From the IMG/VR virus record IMGVR_UViG_3300036790_000204, positions 42,103 through 106,102 of that record: DNA of 64,000 bases. One strand, written 5' to 3'. This stretch comes from a virus. Taxonomy: Duplodnaviria > Heunggongvirae > Uroviricota > Caudoviricetes. Position numbers and translations under genes: made by a program. How positions within the stretch are numbered: position 1 is the first letter of the stretch; each line of letters begins with the position of its first letter. Shown here one piece after another: positions 2 to 42,128 of this stretch. The notes below the pieces were generated by a model that worked only from the letters and a program-made list of their open reading frames with translations, had not been told where the DNA came from and did not search any database.

Positions 2-2497
2 GCCGGCGACGAAGCCGAAGGCGTCCGCGCGCTCAACGCGGTCAGCCATTCACTCGGCGGTCACGCCTACGCGACAGGCGACGCATCCCGCGAGGCCCGC
101 AGCTACTCCGATCGGATGCAAGGGCGGCACGGAGACCTTGAGCTCGCCGAGAAAGCCGGCAGGCTCGAAGCGGTTCACGCGGCAGCGCTCGGCCACGCCG
201 CACAGGCGAACACGCTGTACGACAACGCCAAGGCTGGCCGCGACGATGGCGACCACGAGTTCTCGCCCGGCTACCTGCGCGGCGAAGGCGCGACCGACGC
301 CGACGTCGCCGAGCTGTCACGGCGATACGAGATCATGCACGGCCGCAAGCCGACCGCCGCCGAGCTCGGTAAGATCCGCCGCGCCAAGCCCGCGGCTCAG
401 CCGGCGGGCAGCGCAGAGGCGGAGCACGCCGCCCGGGCGGGGATGATCGCGAAAGCCGGCGACGACAACGCGCACGCCATGAAGCGCATGATGGCGCTCG
501 CCCACGCCAAGCGAGTCCACGAAGCCGACAAGGCGCAGGGCGGCGGCCACCTGCCGCCCCTGGCGCTGCTCGGCAACGAGAAGCACGCGGACGGCAGCAT
601 GACCGCCAGCGCCGTCGACCACCTCGGCCGCGACTACACGGTCAAGCTCGGCGGCGACCGGAGCGTCACCGTCACCCACGAGGGCCGATCGCTGACCGGC
701 CCCGGGGGCGCCAACCCGACGCAGACGGCCCGCGAGCTGGCAGGGAAGCTGACCACGCCTGCCGCCCCGGCGGCGACCACGGCGGACGCCGACAAGTTCT
801 GGGCTGACGAGCCAGCACCCGCCCCCCCGGCGCCGCCGGCGCCGAAGCCGAAATACGAGCAGGGCGGCATGTTCGCCGAACCCGACAAACTTGGCACCGC
901 GCCGATGTTCGGCGACCAGTTCGGCACCAGCGGCATCACGGAGCCAGCGCCCGGATTGGCCGCGCCGGCCGGTCGCGGCACATCGGCACACGGGGACACC
1001 GCCGCGCACCTTCAGGGGCTCGATCCGCGCTACCGGTTCTCGTCTGCCCTGACAAGGGCTTCCGGCGGTCCCGGCAGCGACGACTACGGGAAAATGGTCA
1101 ATCTCGTCAACGGACTTAAGGAGCGCCCGGAGGACGCGGTGCCGCGCGCTCTCGCCCACGCCGAGACGGGCAGCCCGGCAGCCCTAACGCGCCGCGCGCA
1201 GCAGATCGAAGCGGTCACGGGCGCGCTCAACGGCATGCAGCACGACGCGCCGGCCCACCAGATCAGCGCAATGAACGAATACGCGCGGCAGCTCCGCGCC
1301 TCAGTCGGCGCCAAGGGCGCAGGAAAGACGACAGGCGATCCTGCGCACGCGGCGGAAATCCGTCAGCTCGCCGGCCGGGTCGACGGCGACAGCGCGCTCG
1401 AGCGCCGAACCAGAAGCCACCTTGAGGACGCCGCCACGGCGGTGGAAAAGGGAAACCGCAGCGACGCATACGGTCACCTTGACGCCGCCCGGCACGTCGC
1501 CTCCGGCGCAAACACCGCCAGCCACCCGGAAAGCCACCTGGTGACTGACACGGACGGCCACGGCGTCGTCCCCGCGATCGAAGGTCACATGCGCCGCGTG
1601 CCCTACGCCCCGGCCGATACCGCGGATATCGGGCGCGTCGGGCTGCTCGGCGGCCTCGCCCGCGACACCGAGAGTCTCTCTGGCGCGTCGCGCGCGCACA
1701 GCGAAGAAGGCGCTGCGCACCTGGCGACCGCAGCGGCCCACATGCGCGCCGGACGAGACGCCGAGGCATCTACGTCGCTCCGCGACGCCACAGGCGCGCT
1801 CGAGCGCGATTCGGTCGCCGCAGGAGCCGCCCGTGACGGCCAGAGGGCGGCGGGAAACGCAGCCAAGGCCGCAGGGCTGCGCGATGAGACGTCGGCGATC
1901 CTGAGCCGGCACACCGGCTCGGCCGACCACGCGAAGCACGTCGGCCAGGAGGCGAGCGCGGCCCACGCGGCGACCGCTCGCGGCATCGCCGCCGACGTCC
2001 GGATGGAACGGGGTCTCACGGCCGGGCAGCGGGAAGACGCCGAAACCAGCCTCCACGCGGCCGCCCGGCATCTCGAGGCGGGCAACCATGCGGAGGCGGC
2101 CCGCGAGCTCGACAACGCCACGCACGCCACGTCGCTGCGCGGCGGCGGCGTCATCAAGGGCTCCATTGCCGCTCGCGCCCGCGACCTGGCCAAGCGGATC
2201 CGCTCAGGCGAGCACAAGCATGTCGGCGCGGCCCGCGAGATGAAAGACCTCGGCTCGGCGATCGTGTCCCGCTGCGGACGCGAGCCGGATGTCCGCAGGC
2301 AGCTCGCGACCGCCACTGCGGCGCTCGAGGGCGGGGACCCTGCGGCCGCCTATGGTGCGCTTGACATGGCTCGCCGGTACGCGGTCGGCGAGCTCGGCGG
2401 CGACCCGGCGACCGCGCACCTGCAGGTGCTGCTCGCCGACGGCACCGAGGCATCCAAGGCGATCATCCGGTGGCGGGACGCGGTGCGGCAGGGCTGA
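2..2497 (+). CDS. hypothetical large Ala/His-rich repeat protein; N-terminus lies outside the window (frame open from nt 2)
   Basis: 793-aa ORF from M116, but the same frame is open back to nt 2. SHSLGG (GxSxG-like nucleophile elbow) at the window edge. About 35-aa His/Ala/Asp-rich repeats. A GAKGAGKT P-loop-like string is probably chance in a low-complexity region. Confidence 0.4.
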   Translation, partial: AGDEAEGVRALNAVSHSLGGHAYATGDASREARSYSDRMQGRHGDLELAEKAGRLEAVHAAALGHAAQANTLYDNAKAGRDDGDHEFSPGYLRGEGATDADVAELSRRYEIMHGRKPTAAELGKIRRAKPAAQPAGSAEAEHAARAGMIAKAGDDNAHAMKRMMALAHAKRVHEADKAQGGGHLPPLALLGNEKHADGSMTASAVDHLGRDYTVKLGGDRSVTVTHEGRSLTGPGGANPTQTARELAGKLTTPAAPAATTADADKFWADEPAPAPPAPPAPKPKYEQGGMFAEPDKLGTAPMFGDQFGTSGITEPAPGLAAPAGRGTSAHGDTAAHLQGLDPRYRFSSALTRASGGPGSDDYGKMVNLVNGLKERPEDAVPRALAHAETGSPAALTRRAQQIEAVTGALNGMQHDAPAHQISAMNEYARQLRASVGAKGAGKTTGDPAHAAEIRQLAGRVDGDSALERRTRSHLEDAATAVEKGNRSDAYGHLDAARHVASGANTASHPESHLVTDTDGHGVVPAIEGHMRRVPYAPADTADIGRVGLLGGLARDTESLSGASRAHSEEGAAHLATAAAHMRAGRDAEASTSLRDATGALERDSVAAGAARDGQRAAGNAAKAAGLRDETSAILSRHTGSADHAKHVGQEASAAHAATARGIAADVRMERGLTAGQREDAETSLHAAARHLEAGNHAEAARELDNATHATSLRGGGVIKGSIAARARDLAKRIRSGEHKHVGAAREMKDLGSAIVSRCGREPDVRRQLATATAALEGGDPAAAYGALDMARRYAVGELGGDPATAHLQVLLADGTEASKAIIRWRDAVRQG

Positions 2498-5400
2498 TGC
2501 TCATCAAGGCGGTACGCCGCGACGAGCACGGCGTCAGGCGGGTGGTGGCGTCGTGGAACCCGGACAGGCACCCGCGTGACCGGCACGGCCGGTTCATCAC
2601 GACCGGCCATGAGGTGCACCTGGCCGACGGGTCGACCGGGACAGTGGTGCGGGCGGTCGGCTCGAGCAGCATCGAGGTGCGCCACGCCGACGGGCACCTG
2701 CAGCGGGTCGCGGCGAACACGGTGTCCGTCACCGCGCCGAACGCCGCGGGCGCCCTCGAGGGGATCCGGTTCCCCGCGAACCGGAAACTGACCGTGACCC
2801 ACGGGCCCGGCGACACCCCTGTCATCGGGCACGTCACCAGCCACCGCGACCACCTCGCCGTCCAGCCGGCCCGCGGCGGCCCGGCCGTCTACATACCGCA
2901 CAGCTCCGTGAACCGCATCATGGAGAACCCCGGCCGCGACGGTCGCCCCGGCGCAGTCCGCTACGTGCGCCCCGGCTGGAATCCCGGCCGGCACGCCGAA
3001 CGGGACACGGCCGCGCAGGTCGACCAGGTCAGCGCCCGCGACCTGCAGCCCGGCGACCACGCGATGGTCCCGCACCCGCTGACCGGCGAACCCGCGCCGG
3101 GCACGATCGTCGACAAGCGGCTCGACGGCGACACCATCGAGCTTGACGTGCGCCGCGCCGACGGGTCGGTCGACACCGCGGCGATGGACCGCGACGCCGC
3201 CGTCGACAAGATCACCGGCGCCGGCGCCCCGGATGACTTCCCCGACGAGACCGACACGACCCCCGCCCCGGCCGCGCTCCCACCCGTCGCGGTGAAGCCG
3301 CTCCCAGCGGGCACCACGGTCGCACGGCCGGTGCTCTACACCTACCAGCGCCGGAAGATCACCGCCCTGAACCTCGACCGCGACCGGACACTGCCCGAAG
3401 ACCTCCGGCAGGCCGCCGCGCGGATCAGGCAGCGGCAGCCCCTGTCAGCCGGGCAGTCCGCGGCGCTCTCGGCCGAGCTCCGCGAACGCGCCCAAGCCCA
3501 TCCGTCGCCCGTGCAGACCCGGTCGCTCGAGCGCGCCGCATGGCGGCTCGACGCCGCCGCGGCCGAAGCCCACGGCCAGGTCATCCCCGAGCCCGGCATC
3601 GTCCCCGACCGGGCGGCCGAGGTCATGCCCGACGGCATCACCGAAGGCGACAGCATCGTCCTACCGGGCCCCGACGGCACCCTGACGGCGATGAAGGTCC
3701 GCGGGATCACCAGCATGATGGGCGGCCGGGTCCGCGTCCTCGACGTCGAGCACGACGACGGCACCATCGAGCAGCGCACCATCACCGGCCGCACCCGCGC
3801 GTGGCTGCTGCCCGACCGGCCCGACGACGAGCCCGTTGCCGCGCCCGGCCCGCGGCTCGAGCACATCACCCCCGACCAGCTGCGCCCAGGCGACACGATC
3901 CGCGTCAGCGAGGACCACGACGCCGACACCGACCAGGTGACCGGCGTCGAGCCGCTGGAACCCGGCGAGGCGCGGATCACCCTGGCCAGCGGCCAGACGC
4001 AGCTCTCCCAGTCCTACGACGGCGGCCCGAGCATCGTCCGCACCGCCCGCGGCGACGCCAGCGCCGGCCAGCCGTGGGACAGTCTCATGGCCGCCGAGCA
4101 CCCCGAGACCGGCGTCGGGCCGGCCGAGATCAGGGTCGGAGACCGGATCATCCACGGCACCGGCGCCTACGCCGTCACCGGCGCCGTCGTGGAGGCCGAC
4201 CCGCTCGACATCCCGGGCGCGAAAGAGCTGACGATCCGCGAAGACAACTCGTCCAACACCACCGTGCGGCTCTACCCCGGCGACACCGTGACGCGTCTCG
4301 TCAAGGCCGACGACAACGCAGCCGCGCGCATCGAGGAGGAGAAGCGGCGTCGGCTGGCCGACGCCGCGGTCAGCAGGATCAACTACGCGATCAGCGGCCT
4401 GCTGCAGGCCAGCCGCGACCGCGACCTGCGCATGGCGGGGAACTTCTACGGCCAGAGCCACGACGATCTAGCCGCCTCGATCAGCGCGATCCCGGCCGAA
4501 CGCGCGCTCGCCCGCATGGATTCCCACATCCGCATCCTGCAGAACGCGCTGATGCCGCCCGACGGCACACCCGAGACCGAGAGCGCGGCGGCGGAGGCTG
4601 CGCGTCGTCTCCTGCCCGCGATCGGCGAGCTGGCCGAACGGCAGCGCGCCGACGTGATCGCCTCCTTTAAGAACGCCGAGGACGGAATCGACCCGGCCGC
4701 GCTTGCCGACCGTCACGCGAGGGCCGACCCCGCCGGGCTGCTCGCGAGCGCCCGGTCGCGCGTCATGCGGCAGTGGCACGACACGCCGCCGCCGACCCCG
4801 TCAATGGCGGCCACCCGGGCGATCGCCGAGGCAGCCGCCGCGGTCAGGGGAACCGCCGTCGCCCCAGACGCAGCCGGCGACATCCCGAAGCCGCTCCCCG
4901 ACGGCGGCGCCCTGGCCGCCAGGATCCGCGCCTACCGGGCGCAGCTCCCCGCCGACGCCGCCGGGATCGGCAGGCAGTCCGTCACCCGCGCCGTGTTCGC
5001 GACCCCCCGCCTCGAAGACCTCGAGGCGGGTAAAGCGCCGGCGGTCGAGCTCGCCCAGGTGACCACGCCCGACCGCGCCCCGGACGGCGGACCCGGGGCG
5101 ATCGCGATGCGCCACCTCGACACCGTCATGGCCGCCGGGCGCGACCTTGACGCCGAACTGCAAGCGCGCATCGCCAAAGCGCCCATCCGGATCGAGACGC
5201 CGGAAGCCAAAGCAGAGCGGGACGAGCTTCGGAAAAAGTCAGTTGAAGCGGGCACAGCCGCTTTCCGCGCCTACCGCGCGTCGATGGACTCGTACGCCAA
5301 GGCGCACGGGTACATGTCCGCCATGATGCTGGAGCGGCAAGGGACGTCGGCGCAGTTGGCCGAGGCGCGCGAGCAGGCCACCAAAATCCGGGCCGAACGA

Positions 5401-12819: not shown

Positions 12820-15800
12820 GTGGCGGGTAACACGGGCGAGGCGCGGACCGGCATCCCGGAGGGCCTCGAGTGGAAGGGCATAGGGTCGGGCAACGGCGGT
12901 CTGCTCGCCGCTGACGAGGCGACCGGCATCGTTGAGGCGATCGTCTCCGTGACCGGCATCGTGGATGAGGTCAAGGACATCATCGAGCCCGGCGCCTACG
13001 CGGAAACGCTGAGGCAGCGGACCCCCAAGGGCATCTCAGGCCACGACTGGGGGAAGCTCGCGGCCAAGACGCTCGACATCAAGGAGCTGCTGCCGGGCGA
13101 CCCGGCCCTGCCGAGGGAGACGCCGGACGGCAAGCCGTGGCCCGCCGCGGCGGGCGCCCTGTGGGTTAAGGCGCAGTACAACCTTGCCACCCAGATCGGC
13201 CGGGACTGCTTCGCGAACATCCAGTTTTTCGGGCCCGAGACGCAGTGGAGCATCGGATACGACGTCCCGGCCGGCAAGAGCGTAAGAGGACGGGACGGCA
13301 CCAGGCGCATCAAGGGCCTGCGGCTGTTCGAGTACTCCGACGTGCTGTTCGGGGCGGCGCCGCTCACCGGCACCCTGTCCGCGAAAGACGCGAAGCCGTC
13401 CGACGGCGACCCCGATAACGACCTCAACTCGTGGACGACCGACGACCCCGAGGACGCGATCACCCAGGAAGCCGACGCCGACGACCCCGACATGGCCGCG
13501 CTGCACGCCGCGGCGATCTCGGAGATGAACGCTCAGGCGCAGGGCTGGGACGCGATCGACGCCGCGAGCGCGATCAACGCCGGCGAGGAGGAGATCACCG
13601 ACGCGACCGCCGATGATCTGCAGGCCGCCGACCAGCGCCGCCAGGGCGCGACCGCGACGGCCGGGACCAAGGCGGCGGGGGGCGCCACCACGACGCCGGC
13701 CGGCGTGAGCGACACCCCGTGGTCGGACTTCACGGCGGCCGACTACACGCCGGCGCAGTGGCACAAGGCATGCCTGATCCACAACCACGCCCCGGGTGAG
13801 GTCCCCGACGAAAAAGGCGAGTGCCTCGCGCCGTGGACCCCGGTCCTGACTGCACGCGGCTGGCTCCGGGCGGACATGGTGAAGACGGGCGACTCCGTGC
13901 TCACCGCTGAAAAGACCTGGCGGCAAGTGACGCAATGCCACGTGCGCCACTATGCCGGCCCGCTGATGGGGGCAGGGGCAACCTGGCTCACGCCCACGCA
14001 CCCGGTCCTTACGTCAAACGGCTGGCTGCCCTTCGGGGCTGTCGATGCCGCTCAGGACGCCGTTTATGTGCTCCGCGAGATCCCTGACGCTCAGGGATTT
14101 GATGAACTTCTCATCAAGGCGCAGGAGGCGGTAGCCGCGCTTCTCGGCGAAGATCGCGAACTTGCGGTCGCGCTCGACACGTTCGGGCAGCGAATGCCAG
14201 TAGGTTCCGTCGGCCTCAATGGCAAGGGAGTAGGCCGGAACCCAAGCATCGGGGACGTAGCGTCCCATGGTCTTTTGCTTGACGTACTCGACACCAAGGA
14301 GATCGAGCGCGGCGTAGACCGCGACTTCGATGCTCGTCGGGTACTGGATAGCGTGGGTCCGAACGCGGTAGGTGGCACTGCAGCTCTGGGAGCAGAACTT
14401 CTTGCGCTCGGCGAGCGCGGGGATAACGTCGATGTCGACGCCGCATTCGAGGCACTGCCGTACCTCGCTGATCTTCGGACGCCCAAGCGGACGACTCGGG
14501 CCGTAGCAGGCGCTGGAGCAGAAGATGCGCTCGCGGTCGCCCCATGCCAGGGTCATCTCAGTGCCGCAGCCGGGGCAGCTCTTGATGACGGGGGCATGGA
14601 CGCCGCGTTTGCGCCAGACCAAGGCGCTCATGCACGTCTTGGAGCAGGTGCGCGCGTAGGTGCCCGTCACGCGGGCACCACAGACCTCGCAAGCCTTGAG
14701 ATTGGGCTTGGCCGACCCCTTTGCTCGGACTCTGCTGTAACGGCAGTCGGTGGAGCAGTAGACACGCTCCGACCCCACGGCGACCGTGAAGGCACCGCCG
14801 CAGGCGGCGCAAGTCTTGGATATCTCTCGCGAGACCCCTTTGGGACCGCGCCCGCGCTTGTCCCAGGCGAGGCGCACGGTACAGGCGCGCGAACAGGTCT
14901 TGCCCCACATGCCGTTAAAGCAGCGGCTTATGAAATCGGCACCGCAGACGACACAAGTGAAATCGCGTTCCGGCATGATGGAATTATATCCATTGGCTAT
15001 GACGGGCCGGTTTACAACTACGAAGTCGAAACCGACCATTCGTATTTTGCCGGTATTCTCGCCGTCCACAACTGCAAGCTGCCAGTGCGCCAGCCGGACG
15101 GCCGCGTCAACGTCAACGGCGTCCACGCCGCCGCCGGGGTTCTCGCCGGCGCCCGCGGCGGGGTGAACGCGACTGCGGGGCAGAAGCGGATTGCGGCCGC
15201 GCAGCTCCGAGGCCTGTACCGGAAGATCGGCGACACCCCGCCGTCGTCCCTGCAGGCGAAGGTGCTTACCTCGGCCGACGTGACCGGCACCCCGCCGACC
15301 GGGCCGTCGGGCCCGATCCAGCTCCGCGCCCGCCTCGACGGATGGGCCGGGGGCGACCCGGCCGACTACTCGACCGCGCAGTGGCACGACGCGACCCTGA
15401 TCCACAACCACCCCGACGGGATGATGCCGACGGACAAGGGCGACTGCTCGCTGCCCGTGTGCACCCCCGACGGGGCGCTGTCGTCGCAGGGGATGCACGC
15501 CGCCGCGGGGGCGCTCGGCAGCGGCGACCTCGACGCGACCGACGACCAGAAAACGCAGGCCGCCACGGCGCTGCTCATGCTGTTTCGCCGCACCGGTGAG
15601 GCTCCCCCCCCGATTCAGGTCAAGGTCGCCGGGCAGGACGTCACCCCGGCCGACGCGCGCGCCACCCAGCGGCTCAAAGACTGGTACGTGCACGGCGGCG
15701 GCGCCGCGCAGATCGGGTGGGGCGTCGCCGGCGACTTCGACAAGTGCGTTGCGATCGCCGGGAAGCACATGGACCCCGCGAAGGCTAAGGGGTACTGCCA

Positions 15801-16668
15801 GCTGCGCCACAAGGACGCGACCGGGTTCTACGCCGGCCACGCGCCGAGCGAGGAACTAGCCCACGGCGCCGCCGCGGCGATCACCGACGGCACCAAGGCC
15901 GCTGGCATCAACCTCTCCGGCGGGTATAACCCGGCGCTCGAGACCGGCCCCTACGCCGGATGGCGGTCGCCTGAGACGAAAGACATCGGCGACGCCGGCG
16001 ACATGCCCGGGTCGATCGAGGAAACCCTCGACAACGTGTCCGACGCGGTCACCGCGGCGCTCGGCGGCAGCGACACCACCACCGGCGGCCTGCCCAGGTG
16101 GATCGTCACCGTGAACGGCACGTGGCCCGATCATGTGATCGCGACCCGCTACGACACCACCGGCGACCTAGACGACGGCGAGTCGTTCAGCATCGCCTAC
16201 ACCACCGACCCGGACACCGGCGACGTCACCCTAGGCGAGCAGACCCCCGTCACGCTCACCGTCGTGGCCGAGCCCAGCGACGGAACCAAGAGCATCGGCG
16301 ACGGCGAGCGCCTGTCAGCCGTCCCCATCCTCGTCGAGTACGTGGCCGGATTCGTCCGCCGCGGCCTGCAGGTCAAGCAGGGCCGCGTGCTGTCGGAGGT
16401 GAACGGGAAGCTGCTCCGCGGCGCCGTCAGCCAGCTCATCGCCGTGCTGAACGCCGCCGGCATCCCGCTCGACACCCCGCCCGACGACCAGCCCGACCAG
16501 CAGGACCAGGCGCTGGCCACCACCGGCGCCGAGCCGCTGTATCTGCCCGACTCGACCGCGCCGGGCGCGCAGGTCGTGGAAGGCAAGTCGCTGGTCGGCC
16601 CGCGGGACATGGCCCGTCAGCTCCGCATCACCGCAGCCGCGTATGGCGCCGACGGGGATGCCGAGTAG
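12820..16668 (+). CDS. prohead (HK97-family S78) protease fused to a scaffold-like acidic region and a repeat-containing C-terminal polyprotein; contains an intein
   Basis: GTG start. The N-terminal 190 aa match HK97 prohead protease blocks (IVEAIVSVTGIVD..EPGAY, GHDW, WSIGYD, FEYSDVLFGAAP), followed by an acidic region. Tandem repeats AQWH.A.LIHNHP.G..P.[DE]KG[DE]C.LPV. The intein interrupts the first repeat. Confidence 0.6.
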   Translation: MAGNTGEARTGIPEGLEWKGIGSGNGGLLAADEATGIVEAIVSVTGIVDEVKDIIEPGAYAETLRQRTPKGISGHDWGKLAAKTLDIKELLPGDPALPRETPDGKPWPAAAGALWVKAQYNLATQIGRDCFANIQFFGPETQWSIGYDVPAGKSVRGRDGTRRIKGLRLFEYSDVLFGAAPLTGTLSAKDAKPSDGDPDNDLNSWTTDDPEDAITQEADADDPDMAALHAAAISEMNAQAQGWDAIDAASAINAGEEEITDATADDLQAADQRRQGATATAGTKAAGGATTTPAGVSDTPWSDFTAADYTPAQWHKACLIHNHAPGEVPDEKGECLAPWTPVLTARGWLRADMVKTGDSVLTAEKTWRQVTQCHVRHYAGPLMGAGATWLTPTHPVLTSNGWLPFGAVDAAQDAVYVLREIPDAQGFDELLIKAQEAVAALLGEDRELAVALDTFGQRMPVGSVGLNGKGVGRNPSIGDVASHGLLLDVLDTKEIERGVDRDFDARRVLDSVGPNAVGGTAALGAELLALGERGDNVDVDAAFEALPYLADLRTPKRTTRAVAGAGAEDALAVAPCQGHLSAAAGAALDDGGMDAAFAPDQGAHARLGAGARVGARHAGTTDLASLEIGLGRPLCSDSAVTAVGGAVDTLRPHGDREGTAAGGASLGYLSRDPFGTAPALVPGEAHGTGARTGLAPHAVKAAAYEIGTADDTSEIAFRHDGIISIGYDGPVYNYEVETDHSYFAGILAVHNCKLPVRQPDGRVNVNGVHAAAGVLAGARGGVNATAGQKRIAAAQLRGLYRKIGDTPPSSLQAKVLTSADVTGTPPTGPSGPIQLRARLDGWAGGDPADYSTAQWHDATLIHNHPDGMMPTDKGDCSLPVCTPDGALSSQGMHAAAGALGSGDLDATDDQKTQAATALLMLFRRTGEAPPPIQVKVAGQDVTPADARATQRLKDWYVHGGGAAQIGWGVAGDFDKCVAIAGKHMDPAKAKGYCQLRHKDATGFYAGHAPSEELAHGAAAAITDGTKAAGINLSGGYNPALETGPYAGWRSPETKDIGDAGDMPGSIEETLDNVSDAVTAALGGSDTTTGGLPRWIVTVNGTWPDHVIATRYDTTGDLDDGESFSIAYTTDPDTGDVTLGEQTPVTLTVVAEPSDGTKSIGDGERLSAVPILVEYVAGFVRRGLQVKQGRVLSEVNGKLLRGAVSQLIAVLNAAGIPLDTPPDDQPDQQDQALATTGAEPLYLPDSTAPGAQVVEGKSLVGPRDMARQLRITAAAYGADGDAE
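14014..14976 (-). CDS. zinc-ribbon-repeat + Vsr/DUF559-like (PD-(D/E)xK) endonuclease, encoded antisense and entirely inside the intein
   Basis: Part of the 608-aa minus ORF. From M289 (MPERDF) it has five or six CxxC..C..C ribbons, then AIEADGTYWH...ERVERDRKFAIFAEKRGYRLLRLDE (Vsr-like). The upstream 288 aa are an extein-antisense artefact. An alternative ATG lies near 15039. Confidence 0.5.
   Translation of the reverse strand: MPERDFTCVVCGADFISRCFNGMWGKTCSRACTVRLAWDKRGRGPKGVSREISKTCAACGGAFTVAVGSERVYCSTDCRYSRVRAKGSAKPNLKACEVCGARVTGTYARTCSKTCMSALVWRKRGVHAPVIKSCPGCGTEMTLAWGDRERIFCSSACYGPSRPLGRPKISEVRQCLECGVDIDVIPALAERKKFCSQSCSATYRVRTHAIQYPTSIEVAVYAALDLLGVEYVKQKTMGRYVPDAWVPAYSLAIEADGTYWHSLPERVERDRKFAIFAEKRGYRLLRLDEKFIKSLSVRDLAEHINGVLSGIDSPEGQPAV
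14983..14988 (-). promoter_or_regulatory. TATAAT -10 box about 6 nt upstream of the nested endonuclease ATG (candidate leaderless promoter)
   Basis: AT-rich patch ggaattatatcc in an otherwise GC-rich ORF. Its reverse complement gives TATAAT-tccatc-ATG. Confidence 0.25.
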
Positions 16669-18712: not shown

Positions 18713-19906
18713 ATGCCAGAGGGTACCTGTCCGTGCGGTAAAGCAGCGGAGGTCGGCCCGCAATGCCGGACCTGCTATCAGCGGGACTATCGCGAGCGGA
18801 AGAAGAACGGCGAGGCGGCGATCACCCAACCCGGGATCGTCGTGGTGTGCGTGCGCGACGGCTGCGGTACTAGCGTCCGCATCACGGGCGCGCGGCGGCG
18901 CAAGTACGAAGAGAACGGCACCGGGGCCTACTGCGGTAATGAGTGCTACATGGCCGACACCCACGTCGAAGTCAAATGCGCCGGCTGTGGGGCACCGCTT
19001 CAGAGGTACAAGAAGCAGGTAGAGGCCAGCAAGACCGGCCACTTCGTCTGCGAGGGATGCCGCACCACGGTCGGCTGCAAGCCGAGGCGCGGGCAAGAGC
19101 ACACCTGCACCGGATGCGGGACCACGTTCTACCGCCGTCCCGGCGATGACAATCCGCGCTTCCACTCGCGCAGATGCCGCCAGCAGTATGAGCGGGCACA
19201 GCGCGTCACAGTCACTTGCGAAGGCTGCGGGATCGATTTCGAGGTCATCAAGGCCATCGCCGAGCGCAGGCGCTTCCACAATCGCGCCTGCAAGAACCTT
19301 GCGCTCACAACCAACCGGGTGCCCGGCCAGTGGCACAACGGGAAGCCTAAGCGGTCCGGGAGCGGCAACGCAGCCGAGTACATCATGATCTGGGAGCCAG
19401 ATCACCCGAAAGCGTTTCAGGGCGGCTGGATCCTAGAGCACCGCTGGGTCGTGGAGCAGCAGATAGGCCGGTACCTCGAGAAAAGCGAGCAGGTCGACCA
19501 CATCAATCAGGTCAAGAACGACAACCGGCCGGAAAACCTGCGGGTGCTAGACCCGCGCGCGCACCAGCTTGTCACTGCCGCTAATGCGAAGGTTAACCGC
19601 GCCGCCGAGCGCGCCGAACTGAAAAGGTACCGGGAGATATTTGGCTCGGCGGCCGAGGCGGCAGAGGCCGCGCTACGGATAGGCGGCCATCGGCCGGTCG
19701 GCGAACTGCTAGATGAAGCACGATCGATTTTCGTGGAGGCAGCCGCTGCCGCGCCCGAGAAGATGGGCGACGGGCAACTGATGGTGCTGCGACAGTTCCT
19801 CGCCCAGCACGGCACCCGTGCCGAGCGGAAGCGGTACGCAGCGCTTTCCCCGGTGGTCACCGGGTCGCCAGCGGCGGAAGGTGAGACCAAGGACGTGCTG
19901 TTCTAG
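18713..19906 (+). CDS. HNH homing endonuclease with N-terminal zinc-ribbon repeat array
   Basis: HNH core EHRWVVEQQIGRYLEKSEQVDHINQVKNDNRPENLRVL. Four C..C....C..C ribbons. GGAGG RBS. Confidence 0.75.
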   Translation: MPEGTCPCGKAAEVGPQCRTCYQRDYRERKKNGEAAITQPGIVVVCVRDGCGTSVRITGARRRKYEENGTGAYCGNECYMADTHVEVKCAGCGAPLQRYKKQVEASKTGHFVCEGCRTTVGCKPRRGQEHTCTGCGTTFYRRPGDDNPRFHSRRCRQQYERAQRVTVTCEGCGIDFEVIKAIAERRRFHNRACKNLALTTNRVPGQWHNGKPKRSGSGNAAEYIMIWEPDHPKAFQGGWILEHRWVVEQQIGRYLEKSEQVDHINQVKNDNRPENLRVLDPRAHQLVTAANAKVNRAAERAELKRYREIFGSAAEAAEAALRIGGHRPVGELLDEARSIFVEAAAAAPEKMGDGQLMVLRQFLAQHGTRAERKRYAALSPVVTGSPAAEGETKDVLF

Positions 19907-27173: not shown

Positions 27174-28466
27174 ATGGCCGTACCCCCGAAGCCAATCCTC
27201 GCGTCCCTGACCGCCGAGCAGGCAGCTCACGCTCTGGCCATGCTCGACCAGCTGACGGACCGGTCATCCGGCCCGGACGAGTGCTGGCCGTGGACGGGCG
27301 GATCGCTCGTTGGCGGCTACGGCGTGCTCTACACGCTGGGCACCGCGAAAACTCGCCGCATGGTCAAAGCTCACCGGCTGGCGTATGAGATCGCCCACGA
27401 CGGCGAATGTCCGCCTACGATCGACCACACCTGCCACGACGGCGCCGAATGCAAACTTGCCAGCCTGTGCCCGCATCGCCGTTGCTGCAACCCGGCGCAC
27501 CTCAAGGCGGAAACCGCCGCCGGCAACGCGTCTCGCGCTCAGGCGGGTATCTACGAGGAAACGTGCCGCGCCGGGCATCGAATGAACGGCGATAACGCCT
27601 ATGAAGCGCCAGACGGCTCGCGATACTGCCGCAAGTGCGCGGCGGCTCGCGCCCGCAATGCCAGGAGCGACGCCAAGCGGGGCCGCGAAAAAGCGGCAAC
27701 CGAGATTCAGCGCCCGCGAGGGCTTCCAGCCGCCGAGGCGGTGGCATGGGCGCTGGATGGCCAAGACTCGCAGGGCTGCATGCGGTGGCCCGGCTCGACG
27801 CCAAACGGGAGCGGCTACGTCTACGTTGGGGTAGGCGGCAAGACGATCGCGGCACACCGGCTTGTATACGCCGTTCGCGTCGCCCCCATACCAGACGGCT
27901 ACATGGTGGACCACACGTGCCACGACCCGAAGATATGCCCTGGCGGGATGGAGTGCGCGCATCGCGCGTGCATCAACCCGGAGCACCTCACTGCCGTCAC
28001 GCACGCGGAGAATTCATCGGTGCCCCGTTCGGTGCGGCGCAGGCCCGACGAGTGCATCGCCGGCCACCTGTTCACCGAGGAAAACACTTACACCGACAAG
28101 CAGGGATCACGGCACTGCCTAGCCTGCCAGCGAGACCACGCGCAAGCGGCCGCAGGGAAGGCCAGAGAATCATCCGGCTGGACGGATGCCCGGTTCCGGG
28201 ACGGGAATCTGTGTAGGAACGGCCACGACGTGACCGTGACCGGGCTTAACGCAGAAGGTAAGTGCGCCGAGTGCAGCCGGACGCGAAAGCGAGAATGGAA
28301 GGCGCGGGAGGCCGCCAAGCCCAAGCCGGATCGGGTTGACAAGCGCAAGCGGCAGGGGGATCTGTGCGGCAACGGGCTGCACGACGTGACGGTGACCGGG
28401 CTGACCAAGGCTGGCCGGTGCGCCGAGTGCAAGCGCGCCAGCCAGCGCCTGGCGCCTGTTAGCTAA
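27174..28466 (+). CDS. homing endonuclease with tandem HNH domains and C-terminal zinc ribbons
   Basis: Two copies of CWPW(T)G..GYG....HR..Y....G......DH.C....C.NP.HL, plus several CxxC ribbons. Confidence 0.7.
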   Translation: MAVPPKPILASLTAEQAAHALAMLDQLTDRSSGPDECWPWTGGSLVGGYGVLYTLGTAKTRRMVKAHRLAYEIAHDGECPPTIDHTCHDGAECKLASLCPHRRCCNPAHLKAETAAGNASRAQAGIYEETCRAGHRMNGDNAYEAPDGSRYCRKCAAARARNARSDAKRGREKAATEIQRPRGLPAAEAVAWALDGQDSQGCMRWPGSTPNGSGYVYVGVGGKTIAAHRLVYAVRVAPIPDGYMVDHTCHDPKICPGGMECAHRACINPEHLTAVTHAENSSVPRSVRRRPDECIAGHLFTEENTYTDKQGSRHCLACQRDHAQAAAGKARESSGWTDARFRDGNLCRNGHDVTVTGLNAEGKCAECSRTRKREWKAREAAKPKPDRVDKRKRQGDLCGNGLHDVTVTGLTKAGRCAECKRASQRLAPVS

Positions 28467-42014: not shown

Positions 42015-42128
42015 GCAGGGAAAAGGAAATAGCCGACGTCACCGCCGAGGCAGACGCCCTGCTCGGCAAGCTACGCGCCAACGTCGCCGCCCTCAACGCC
42101 ATCCTCGCAACAGACCCGGAGGTCACTG

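Follow-up and report, generated by a model that had tools for sequence, protein, structure and literature searches.

Homing endonuclease (HEN) genes that lie antisense within inteins have recently been described in phages. In a survey of 784 actinobacteriophage inteins, Gosselin, Arsenault & Gogarten reported full inteins with an antisense Vsr-like HEN, in which the sense-strand interiors are unstructured and HHpred ties the endonuclease to 3R3P, and they proposed invasion by a free-standing endonuclease as the origin (bioRxiv 10.1101/2025.01.02.630785). Here we describe a locus of this kind in a 64,000-nucleotide stretch of viral DNA (Caudoviricetes; IMG/VR record IMGVR_UViG_3300036790_000204, positions 42,103 to 106,102), hereafter the window, where an intein in a prohead protease/scaffold polyprotein carries on its opposite strand a gene for a zinc-ribbon, Vsr-like endonuclease (Table 1). 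Like the published class, it comprises a contiguous full intein, an opposite-strand Vsr-like open reading frame (ORF) between the splicing blocks, and an unstructured sense interior. The published hosts are DNA polymerase, minor capsid protein, terminase and thymidylate synthase of phages in PhagesDB, whereas the window comes from an uncultured phage or prophage in a metagenome-assembled genome (MAG) of Trebonia, and differs from the published class in its five tandem zinc ribbons and in the availability of a 99%-identical empty allele. The original prediction, made from the letters of the window without database searches, had known of no described arrangement like this, a claim that the preprint overturns; the locus extends a rare class, only recently described, to a new host protein.

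Endonucleases of the same family are known from other intervening sequences. The name EDxHD was given to the family by Taylor et al. (2011), in their characterisation of I-Bth0305I (PMC3239194). This enzyme shares with that of the window a Vsr-like catalytic domain, the IE.DG..W/H...D motif and residence in a mobile intervening sequence of a phage gene. It is encoded, however, on the sense strand of a group I intron of recA and has NUMOD/HTH (helix-turn-helix) N-terminal modules (PMC3239194), whereas the window endonuclease lies in an intein, is antisense and carries an array of zinc ribbons. Vsr-like endonuclease genes between the halves of split inteins were described by Dassa et al. (2009), who proposed that free-standing genes invade inteins, and who stated that Vsr-like enzymes were then 'not known to be present in inteins' (PMC2677866). 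In the window, as in those fractured genes, phage-type DNA encodes an intein with a Vsr-like gene at its endonuclease-insertion point. The fractured host genes are broken into two ORFs and splice in trans (PMC2677866), whereas the window retains a single continuous ORF of 1282 codons, since the gene that invaded it runs antisense, is codon-aligned and lacks the codons TTA, CTA and TCA.

Collaborative homing of free-standing endonuclease genes with group I introns, described by Zeng, Bonocora and Shub in 2009, reportedly occurs in cyanophages and T4-type phages. The likeness lies in a free-standing endonuclease gene (here, in relatives of the window gene) beside the target gene, with an intervening sequence at or near the cleavage site; in those phages the intervening sequences are group I introns, whereas in the window it is an intein, and cleavage is predicted. 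Opposite-strand LAGLIDADG endonuclease ORFs in contiguous inteins, as in the window, are cited in the preprint for Synechocystis DnaX and a Chloroflexus SpoVR-like protein (Gorbalenya 1998, Gogarten 2002; cited in 10.1101/2025.01.02.630785); as cited there, they differ from the window in nuclease family and in their bacterial chromosomal context. The ShiLan domain, an in-frame endonuclease insertion in a phage methylase, has no detectable splicing domain (PMC11855218), whereas the ends of the window insertion form a Hint domain with all splicing residues.

The explanation that we consider likely for the locus is a composite mobile element, comprising a class-1 intein and a separately expressed antisense gene for a Vsr-like EDxHD endonuclease in the endonuclease-insertion loop of the intein. 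The layout is real, and the element has probably been mobile recently. The extent of the intein is defined by an allele that lacks it. A search of 5.8 billion proteins returned P0002, a protein of 865 amino acids (aa) that is 99% identical to the window precursor and shorter by exactly 417 aa (1282 - 417); it reads ...PDTKGD|CKLPV..., and residues 335-751 of the precursor are exactly absent from it. Four more orthologues (52-63% identical) are gapless through ...K-x-x|C-K-L-P-V..., with the Cys invariant, and the orthologues are 865-917 aa long. The contig that bears P0002 (L004) is syntenic with the window at 97-98% DNA identity across more than 20 kb, and in the DNA alignment 1251 nt (417 codons) form a clean insertion in the window. 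The starting Cys, the TPTH of block B and the terminal ...HN|C that had been read from the sequence alone are all present (the segment ends in ...AVHN, followed by the Cys codon at 15073-15075). The exact gap agrees with these boundaries and provides the insert-free relative with which the original prediction had wished to compare the locus.

Differences between the carrier and the empty allele are concentrated at the two junctions (Table 1), against a background of about 1-2% elsewhere. On the left, the mismatches lie at positions 0, 6, 9, 10, 11, 18, 24, 27 and 30 upstream of the junction, and turn PDTKGD of the empty allele into PDEKGE of the window. The cluster is co-conversion-like, in that flank co-conversion during homing from a slightly different donor would be expected to leave such a pattern. 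We note that the same polyprotein contains an uninvaded paralogous copy of the target domain (...TDKGD|CSLPVCTPDG..., at about 15445 in the window), which holds the downstream repeat KGDCSLPV named in the original prediction; its DNA has many differences from the empty-allele site to the right of the Cys codon.

The two ends of the insertion resemble those of other inteins. Searched exhaustively with phmmer against 1.84 billion representative proteins, the intein gave 179 hits at an expectation value (E) of no more than 1e-3, and the matched regions were query residues 1-~80 and ~388-417. All 10 of the top-scoring relatives scanned carry Pfam Hint_2, Intein_splicing or PT-HINT, most of them above the gathering threshold. 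When the window ends are projected onto some 150 listed relatives, 128 have the Cys start and the His-Asn end, nearly all followed by Cys at position +1. An alignment with 33 relatives, including 12 natural mini-inteins of 112-147 aa, leaves Cys1, Thr57, His60, His416 and Asn417 invariant and confines the Hint core to residues 1-~88 and ~390-417 of the window intein. The profile of this alignment (A3) matches solved inteins in the PDB with E values of 1.4e-16 to 1e-12, among them the bacterial intein-like domain 2LWY (E 1.4e-16), the Mtu RecA intein 3IFJ (E 4.6e-14) and the Spl DnaX mini-intein 7CFV (E 1.6e-13). [quoted passage not shown] By its residues the segment is a class-1 intein, which the modelled fold supports, and it is predicted to splice.

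The inteins closest to the window in the splicing region are those of P0118 and P0120, which are 'minor capsid' proteins of the Phage_min_cap2/MuF-like type. A natural pair with and without an interior was also seen: P0135 (462 aa) and P0136 (698 aa) are related proteins with one and the same intein at a shared site, in one case a mini-intein of 130 aa and in the other a 365-aa form with a Ser/Arg-rich interior, which is typical of an out-of-frame or antisense gene.

On the minus strand, the 320-aa product carries the zinc ribbons and the Vsr/DUF559-type nuclease that had been read from the letters, DUF559 matching above its Pfam gathering threshold (24.5 bits, threshold 20.6), together with MTES_1575 and Vsr; it also matches PHROG 1271 (E 1.5e-21). 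The five zinc-ribbon modules lie at residues 8-32, 56-78, 96-115, 134-157 and 175-199, with the spacing CxxC-(8-22)-CxxxC. This region is weakly similar, by profile, to the C-terminal zinc ribbons of topoisomerase I (4RUL, E 4e-4), and the number of modules varies among homologues, with 3 in that of contig L005 and 7 in that of L007. In the nuclease core, Glu217, Asp243, Glu254, Asp256, Tyr259, Trp260, His261 and Asp270 are invariant across nine family members (the window and eight homologues), and the active-site motif aligns to LAIEVNG.YW...D of 3R3P. This structure, the catalytic domain of I-Bth0305I, is the best PDB match of the endonuclease-alignment profile (E 3.7e-15), followed by the DUF559 protein 3HRL and then by E. 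coli Vsr (1CW0, E 2.8e-6). The same order emerges from the AlphaFold model, whose core has a pLDDT of 81-97: Foldseek places 3R3P first, with a TM (template modelling) score of 0.83 and a root-mean-square deviation of 2.8 A, then 3HRL (TM 0.77) and Vsr (1CW0/1VSR, TM ~0.6). By these residues and by the modelled fold, the window endonuclease belongs to the Vsr-like 'EDxHD' family of homing endonucleases, and is predicted to cleave DNA.

The sense strand opposite this gene looks different. A Pfam scan of the sense-frame interior gave no domain match, in accordance with the original prediction that no endonuclease motif lies there, and the AlphaFold2 model is unstructured, with a pLDDT mostly of 31-49 and intein residues 124-377 almost all below 50. 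Between 14014 and 14976 the G+C contents of the three codon positions in the sense frame (GC1/GC2/GC3) are 0.80/0.54/0.58, that is, an antisense GC3 of 0.80, whereas the exteins show ~0.67-0.71/0.52-0.53/0.93. The sense interior is without sign of protein-level constraint, because its GC3 pattern is that of the antisense gene and its pLDDT is so low, and it need only stay stop-free. The conserved part of the endonuclease ends at about residue 305 (~14061), its last 15 residues being a non-conserved tail that reaches the first stop, and the conserved Hint N-domain ends at about residue 88 (~14085), so that true double coding would be limited to ~25 nt (~14061-14085). The proposal that both strands would be under coding constraint is thus weakly true at most. 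An intein with an endonuclease gene nested antisense inside it, the central claim of the original prediction, is supported by the Hint profile and fold, the flipped GC3 and the homologues.

How the intein frame stays open is explained by the phase of the two frames. They are codon-aligned, with sense position 1 opposite antisense position 3, and in this phase the intein frame can acquire a stop only where the endonuclease gene has TTA, CTA or TCA, which are Leu and Ser codons that can be replaced synonymously. None of the three occurs among the 18 Leu and 25 Ser codons of the window gene; the sense frame of the intein has no stop, and the other four frames have 5-14.

Table 1. Features of the intein locus in window coordinates, with the evidence for each
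Feature	Coordinates	Strand	Evidence
Class-1 intein, 417 aa	13822..15072	+	Segment exactly missing in 99%-identical allele; relatives, profile, AlphaFold2 model
Hint N-terminal splicing region; Cys1 13822-13824, block B T-P-T-H 13990-14001	13822..14085	+	Aligns with mini-inteins, residues 1-~88
Hint C-terminal splicing region, blocks F/G ...PVYNYEVETDHSYFAGILAVHN; terminal His-Asn 15067-15072	14989..15072	+	His416 and Asn417 invariant
Sense interior of intein; stop-free Ala/Gly/Asp-rich linker, mirror translation of the endonuclease gene	14086..14988	+	GC pattern, pLDDT, absent in mini-intein relatives
Homing-endonuclease gene, 320 codons plus stop 14014-14016	14014..14976	-	Pfam, PHROG, homologues, GC3 0.80, codon-aligned antisense to intein
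Five CxxC...CxxxC zinc-ribbon modules, presumed DNA-binding region	14380..14955	-	Regular-expression inventory
Vsr-like/EDxHD nuclease core, residues ~211-305	14062..14346	-	Invariant columns, profile, Foldseek, pLDDT
TATAAT -10-like hexamer, 6 nt upstream of endonuclease ATG, no Shine-Dalgarno; putative leaderless promoter	14983..14988	-	Sole TATAAT in 64 kb
Precursor ORF, 1282 aa; prohead serine protease (S78-like)/scaffold polyprotein holding the intein	12820..16668	+	Uninterrupted ORF, PHROG 80 match
N-extein, ending ...GEVPDEKGE	12820..13821	+	End-to-end alignment with intein-less P0002; GC3 0.93
C-extein, starting with +1 nucleophile Cys (15073-15075), CKLPVRQPDG...	15073..16668	+	Cys invariant in all orthologues; GC3 0.93
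Left flank, clustered substitutions versus empty allele: 9 differences in 31 nt	13791..13821	.	DNA alignment with L004
Right flank, 2 substitutions in the first 15 nt, both synonymous, versus empty allele	15073..15087	.	DNA alignment with L004

The layout recurs among relatives of the endonuclease and of the intein. The interiors of the P0118 and P0120 inteins hold codon-aligned antisense Vsr-like genes in the same relative position as that of the window, although their products are only 32-34% identical to the window endonuclease, in the nuclease core only. A related protease/scaffold protein (P0026, on contig L013) contains a 317-aa intein (L013 3020-3970) at a different site, NWVDQ|C...VHN|SGGLP, with a codon-aligned antisense ORF for HTH_58/HTH_7 domains plus a nuclease-like C-terminus; GC3 is flipped there as in the window intein. 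To survey the recurrence, metagenome contigs were scanned with the endonuclease profile, which gave 80 loci, and their six-frame translations were searched with the Hint profile. In eight of the 80, the gene lies antisense within an unbroken intein ORF; inspection added L087 (35% GC) as a ninth. Three loci (L034, L048 and L050) have the Vsr-like domain in the sense frame, with Hint-N, nuclease and Hint-C in one ORF, in two (L029 and L030) the endonuclease gene separates the halves of a split intein, as in 'fractured genes', and the remainder are free-standing. All stages of the proposed evolutionary pathway thus coexist in the data, since in-frame sense and fractured loci are found among the relatives. 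Together with L016 and L017, the nine metagenome loci make at least 11 further antisense-nested Vsr-like cases.

Codon alignment is a constant of these cases: it was found in 12 of the 12 antisense-nested genes tested (the window, L013, L016, L017 and eight metagenome loci). The eight nested metagenome loci together contain no TTA, CTA or TCA, against 30.5 expected, even though they include genomes of 50-53% GC, and we therefore conclude that, for the class, the open intein frame is kept by selection; L087 likewise has none, against 5.5 expected. A general avoidance of these codons by the whole endonuclease family was considered and rejected, the observed/expected ratio being 0.83 in free-standing genes and 0.81-1.08 in control ORFs. 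The depletion is limited to nested genes and a few individual free-standing ones. In the free-standing gene of L007 (42-46% GC), none of 50 Leu/Ser codons is TTA, CTA or TCA, against 11-13.5 expected (P ~4e-6 to 8e-8), and five apparently free-standing genes (L065, L071, L097, L005 and L007) have a stop-free codon-aligned antisense frame, with 0 TTA/CTA/TCA. Such zero counts may be the footprint of a nested past.

Among the 5.8 billion proteins searched, the two closest relatives of the window endonuclease are encoded by free-standing genes, both on small phage-like contigs. The product of the L005 gene is 51% identical to the window enzyme; that of the L007 gene, whose true ORF is 863-2116 (+) and encodes 417 aa, is 41% identical. 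Both genes are antisense to all of their neighbours, and both directly adjoin a small gene for the domain that the window intein interrupts (...C-[HA]-L-P-V-x-E-P-[DN]-G...HAAA.ALAGARGG), the neighbouring domains being 48% (L005, E 2e-27) and 39% (L007, E 5e-18) identical to the spliced window protein. No Hint motifs were found around the L007 gene in any of the minus frames. More distant relatives stand free after the capsid gene of Bixzunavirus mycobacteriophages, and in mycobacteriophage Fishburne (NC_021302, L001) a zinc-ribbon/Vsr-like endonuclease gene (2414-3259) lies antisense between the DNA methyltransferase parts gp57 and gp59/gp60. The annotated 'hypothetical protein' gp58 of Fishburne is the mirror ORF of this endonuclease gene, and in KilKor (L002) the matching region is left unannotated. 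Scans for close relatives gave one weak hit in viral contigs and none in genome contigs, a profile scan of genomes returned distant relatives only, and the metagenome scan of 80 loci contained no nested relative more than 35% identical to the window endonuclease.

The nested gene appears to have an expression signal of its own. The TATAAT read 14988->14983 is the single occurrence on both strands of the 64-kb window (0.69 expected), the arrangement TATAAT-N6-ATG arose in 0 of 100 shuffles, and the hexamer lies in an AT-rich region (GC 0.535 at 14900-15099, against 0.65-0.75 around it), all of which agrees with the description of a perfect TATAAT 6 nt before the ATG in an AT-rich patch. In the sense frame, it is read as the rare Ile codons ATT ATA, right before block F. 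Two other nested endonuclease genes have comparable elements, TATAAT 9 nt before the ATG in L016 and TATACT 6 nt before the ATG in L017. A leaderless transcript from a dedicated promoter, as the original prediction suggested from the placement of the -10 element, is plausible and may reasonably be inferred, because leaderless mRNAs are common in Actinobacteria. We note also a terminator-like hairpin with a T-run (GCGAGGCACTCGC CTTTTTCGTC; 13829->13817 on the minus strand) that straddles the N-junction of the intein, ~185 nt downstream of the endonuclease stop. It has a stem of 5 bp and was partly created by substitutions that separate the window from the empty allele; the sigma-70 scan that gave it found two sites against 0.8 expected, and the hairpin is not significant alone.

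These features suggest how the element would work. The 1282-aa precursor would be translated through the mirror sequence, which would form a disordered linker of ~300 residues, and the intein would then splice, joining ...PDEKGE to CKLPV... and yielding an 865-aa protein. The -10 element of the endonuclease gene would drive a leaderless mRNA, in the direction opposite to the late structural genes. In a mixed infection, the endonuclease would cut the uninterrupted allele near ...GGCGAC|TGCAAGCTGCC..., the predicted target being the L004 sequence around GACACCAAGGGCGAC|TGCAAGCTGCCGGTC, and repair from the intein-bearing copy would transfer the intein, the endonuclease gene and a few tens of bases of flank. 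The related enzyme I-Bth0305I reportedly leaves 2-nt 5' overhangs. As to origin, a free-standing endonuclease gene already beside the target domain would have landed in an intein, at or close to the site that its product cleaves, and the nested gene would have persisted because, as oriented and phased, it put no stop into the intein frame.

We favour this history, in which a gene that already targeted the interrupted domain may have lodged in the intein, because the closest endonuclease relatives are free-standing beside the same domain, while the nested endonucleases of the MuF-type inteins are so much less similar. Of the two origins raised by the original prediction, invasion of a mini-intein by a free-standing endonuclease gene fits best, the 51%- and 41%-identical relatives both being free-standing. 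Alternatively, a ready-made composite of intein and antisense Vsr-like gene could have moved in from another host protein, for example a MuF-like minor capsid protein; we regard this as possible, if rather doubtful. The published survey observed extein switching of inteins (10.1101/2025.01.02.630785), and the closest splicing regions are precisely those of the P0118 and P0120 inteins, which already carry codon-aligned antisense endonucleases. The similarity of those endonucleases to that of the window is nevertheless limited to the core, whereas that of the L005 and L007 products extends over zinc ribbons and core, their free-standing genes adjoin the same target domain, and the metagenome scan offers no nested relative above 35% identity. 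A mini-intein at this site was not seen either, so both histories are tentative.

Several further observations weigh against the reading of the locus as a composite, recently mobile element. On the single window sequence, the Pfam Hint models match weakly and below threshold (Hint_2 E 0.056, Vint E 0.06), and a single-sequence phmmer search of the PDB found no intein; because these matches are weak or absent, membership in the Hint superfamily rests on relatives, profile and predicted structure. Thus, of the profile hidden Markov model matches anticipated on the two strands, that to DUF559/Vsr was obtained directly, and that to Hint only by way of relatives and the profile. The chance of finding no TTA, CTA or TCA at this one locus is ~0.06-0.26, depending on whether host-gene or endonuclease codon usage is taken, so that the open sense frame of the GC-rich window needs little or no special explanation. 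The junction substitutions could also be local divergence of a variable loop. The intein is known from one contig alone, which limits the measurement of selection on either strand, and a simple sigma-70 scan found no -35/-10 pair for the endonuclease promoter.

The last two points would suit a relic, in which the intein would still splice, or the gene be dead, but the endonuclease would have lost its expression or activity, and the difference between the two alleles would reflect an old insertion or a precise loss in place of ongoing homing, and some Vsr-like cases in the published survey look vertically inherited (10.1101/2025.01.02.630785). We think a relic unlikely: the 320-codon ORF is intact, all family-invariant residues are present, the core is predicted with high confidence, a unique consensus -10 element lies at a leaderless distance, and the 97-98% identity of carrier and empty genome, together with substitutions that cluster only at the junctions, speaks for a recent event. 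The sub-threshold Pfam matches raise the further question of whether the insertion splices at all, since the stop-free read-through of the ShiLan class (PMC11855218) provides a precedent for a tolerated, non-splicing in-frame loop with a hidden endonuclease gene. Such a loop is very improbable here, as Cys1, TxxH and HN|Cys all occur, in alignment with more than 120 inteins, the profile matches solved inteins, the predicted Hint fold has a pLDDT above 93, and the ShiLan element is without the detectable splicing domain that the window insertion has. Finally, long antisense ORFs are common at 65-70% GC, and the minus-strand ORF is formally 608 codons long, as might be expected of a chance 'shadow' ORF of a GC-rich gene, with the real endonuclease domain, if any, in the sense frame. 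We consider this refuted, with next to no probability left to it: the GC3 signal switches to the minus strand only between 14014 and 14976, the minus-strand product has Pfam, PHROG, PDB and fold matches and dozens of homologues, and the sense interior has neither a match nor a predicted fold.

The host gene belongs to a phage head module. The N-terminus of the precursor matches the head maturation protease family PHROG 80 (E 4.5e-16), Pfam Peptidase_S78 falls slightly under its threshold, and an NCBI hypothetical protein from a 'Trebonia sp.' MAG (P0001) is identical to the 1282-aa precursor. A megablast search of the polyprotein gene against 50,697 phage records gave no match. The window is from a phage or prophage, because the neighbours of the precursor gene are phage head and tail genes and the homologous contig L004 holds Phage_capsid, tail-tube and Mu-F-like genes. 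Two other endonuclease genes stand further along the window. Directly after the major capsid gene, an ORF of 397 aa (18713-19906, +) encodes several CxxC...C zinc-ribbon modules like those of the nested endonuclease (e.g. CEGCGIDFEVIKAIAERRRFHNRAC) ahead of an HNH_3 domain (E 1.1e-10); L004 holds ~190 nt in its place, so that it represents a second endonuclease-gene insertion. Another ORF of 430 aa (27174-28466, +), with an HNH_3 match (E 2e-11) and a His-Me zinc-binding loop, is absent from L004 (an insertion of ~1.3 kb) and is the third free-standing endonuclease gene in the phage.

To the recently described class, the locus adds a protease/scaffold host, a five-module zinc-ribbon array and a near-identical empty allele with junction-confined substitutions, as well as free-standing sister genes beside the same target domain, a conserved leaderless-type -10 element and the codon-alignment rule. 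The empty allele makes the homing site, the co-conversion tract and the specificity of an EDxHD enzyme with a zinc-ribbon array directly approachable. The locus also carries a lesson for annotation, in that gene callers miss nested genes or annotate their mirror ORFs, as with gp58 of Fishburne and a 130-aa ORF inside the L007 endonuclease gene. Above all, it is a natural example of an intein that gained an endonuclease without fusion into one protein: the gene lies reversed in the intein loop, in the one phase where the avoidance of three replaceable codons keeps the host frame open. This supports the view of 'splicing first, endonuclease later' and the gene-invasion model behind split inteins. 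More tentatively, and with the odds somewhat against it, free-standing endonuclease genes may in general be able to live inside ORFs by codon-aligned antisense nesting, a habit open to selection, with lineages that shuttle between the free-standing and the nested state. The constant phase of the nested genes, the lack of TTA, CTA and TCA in them and in several apparently free-standing relatives, and the free-standing sister genes beside the interrupted domain would all suit this reading; if it holds, the window would be a snapshot of the traffic between the free-standing and the intein-nested states.

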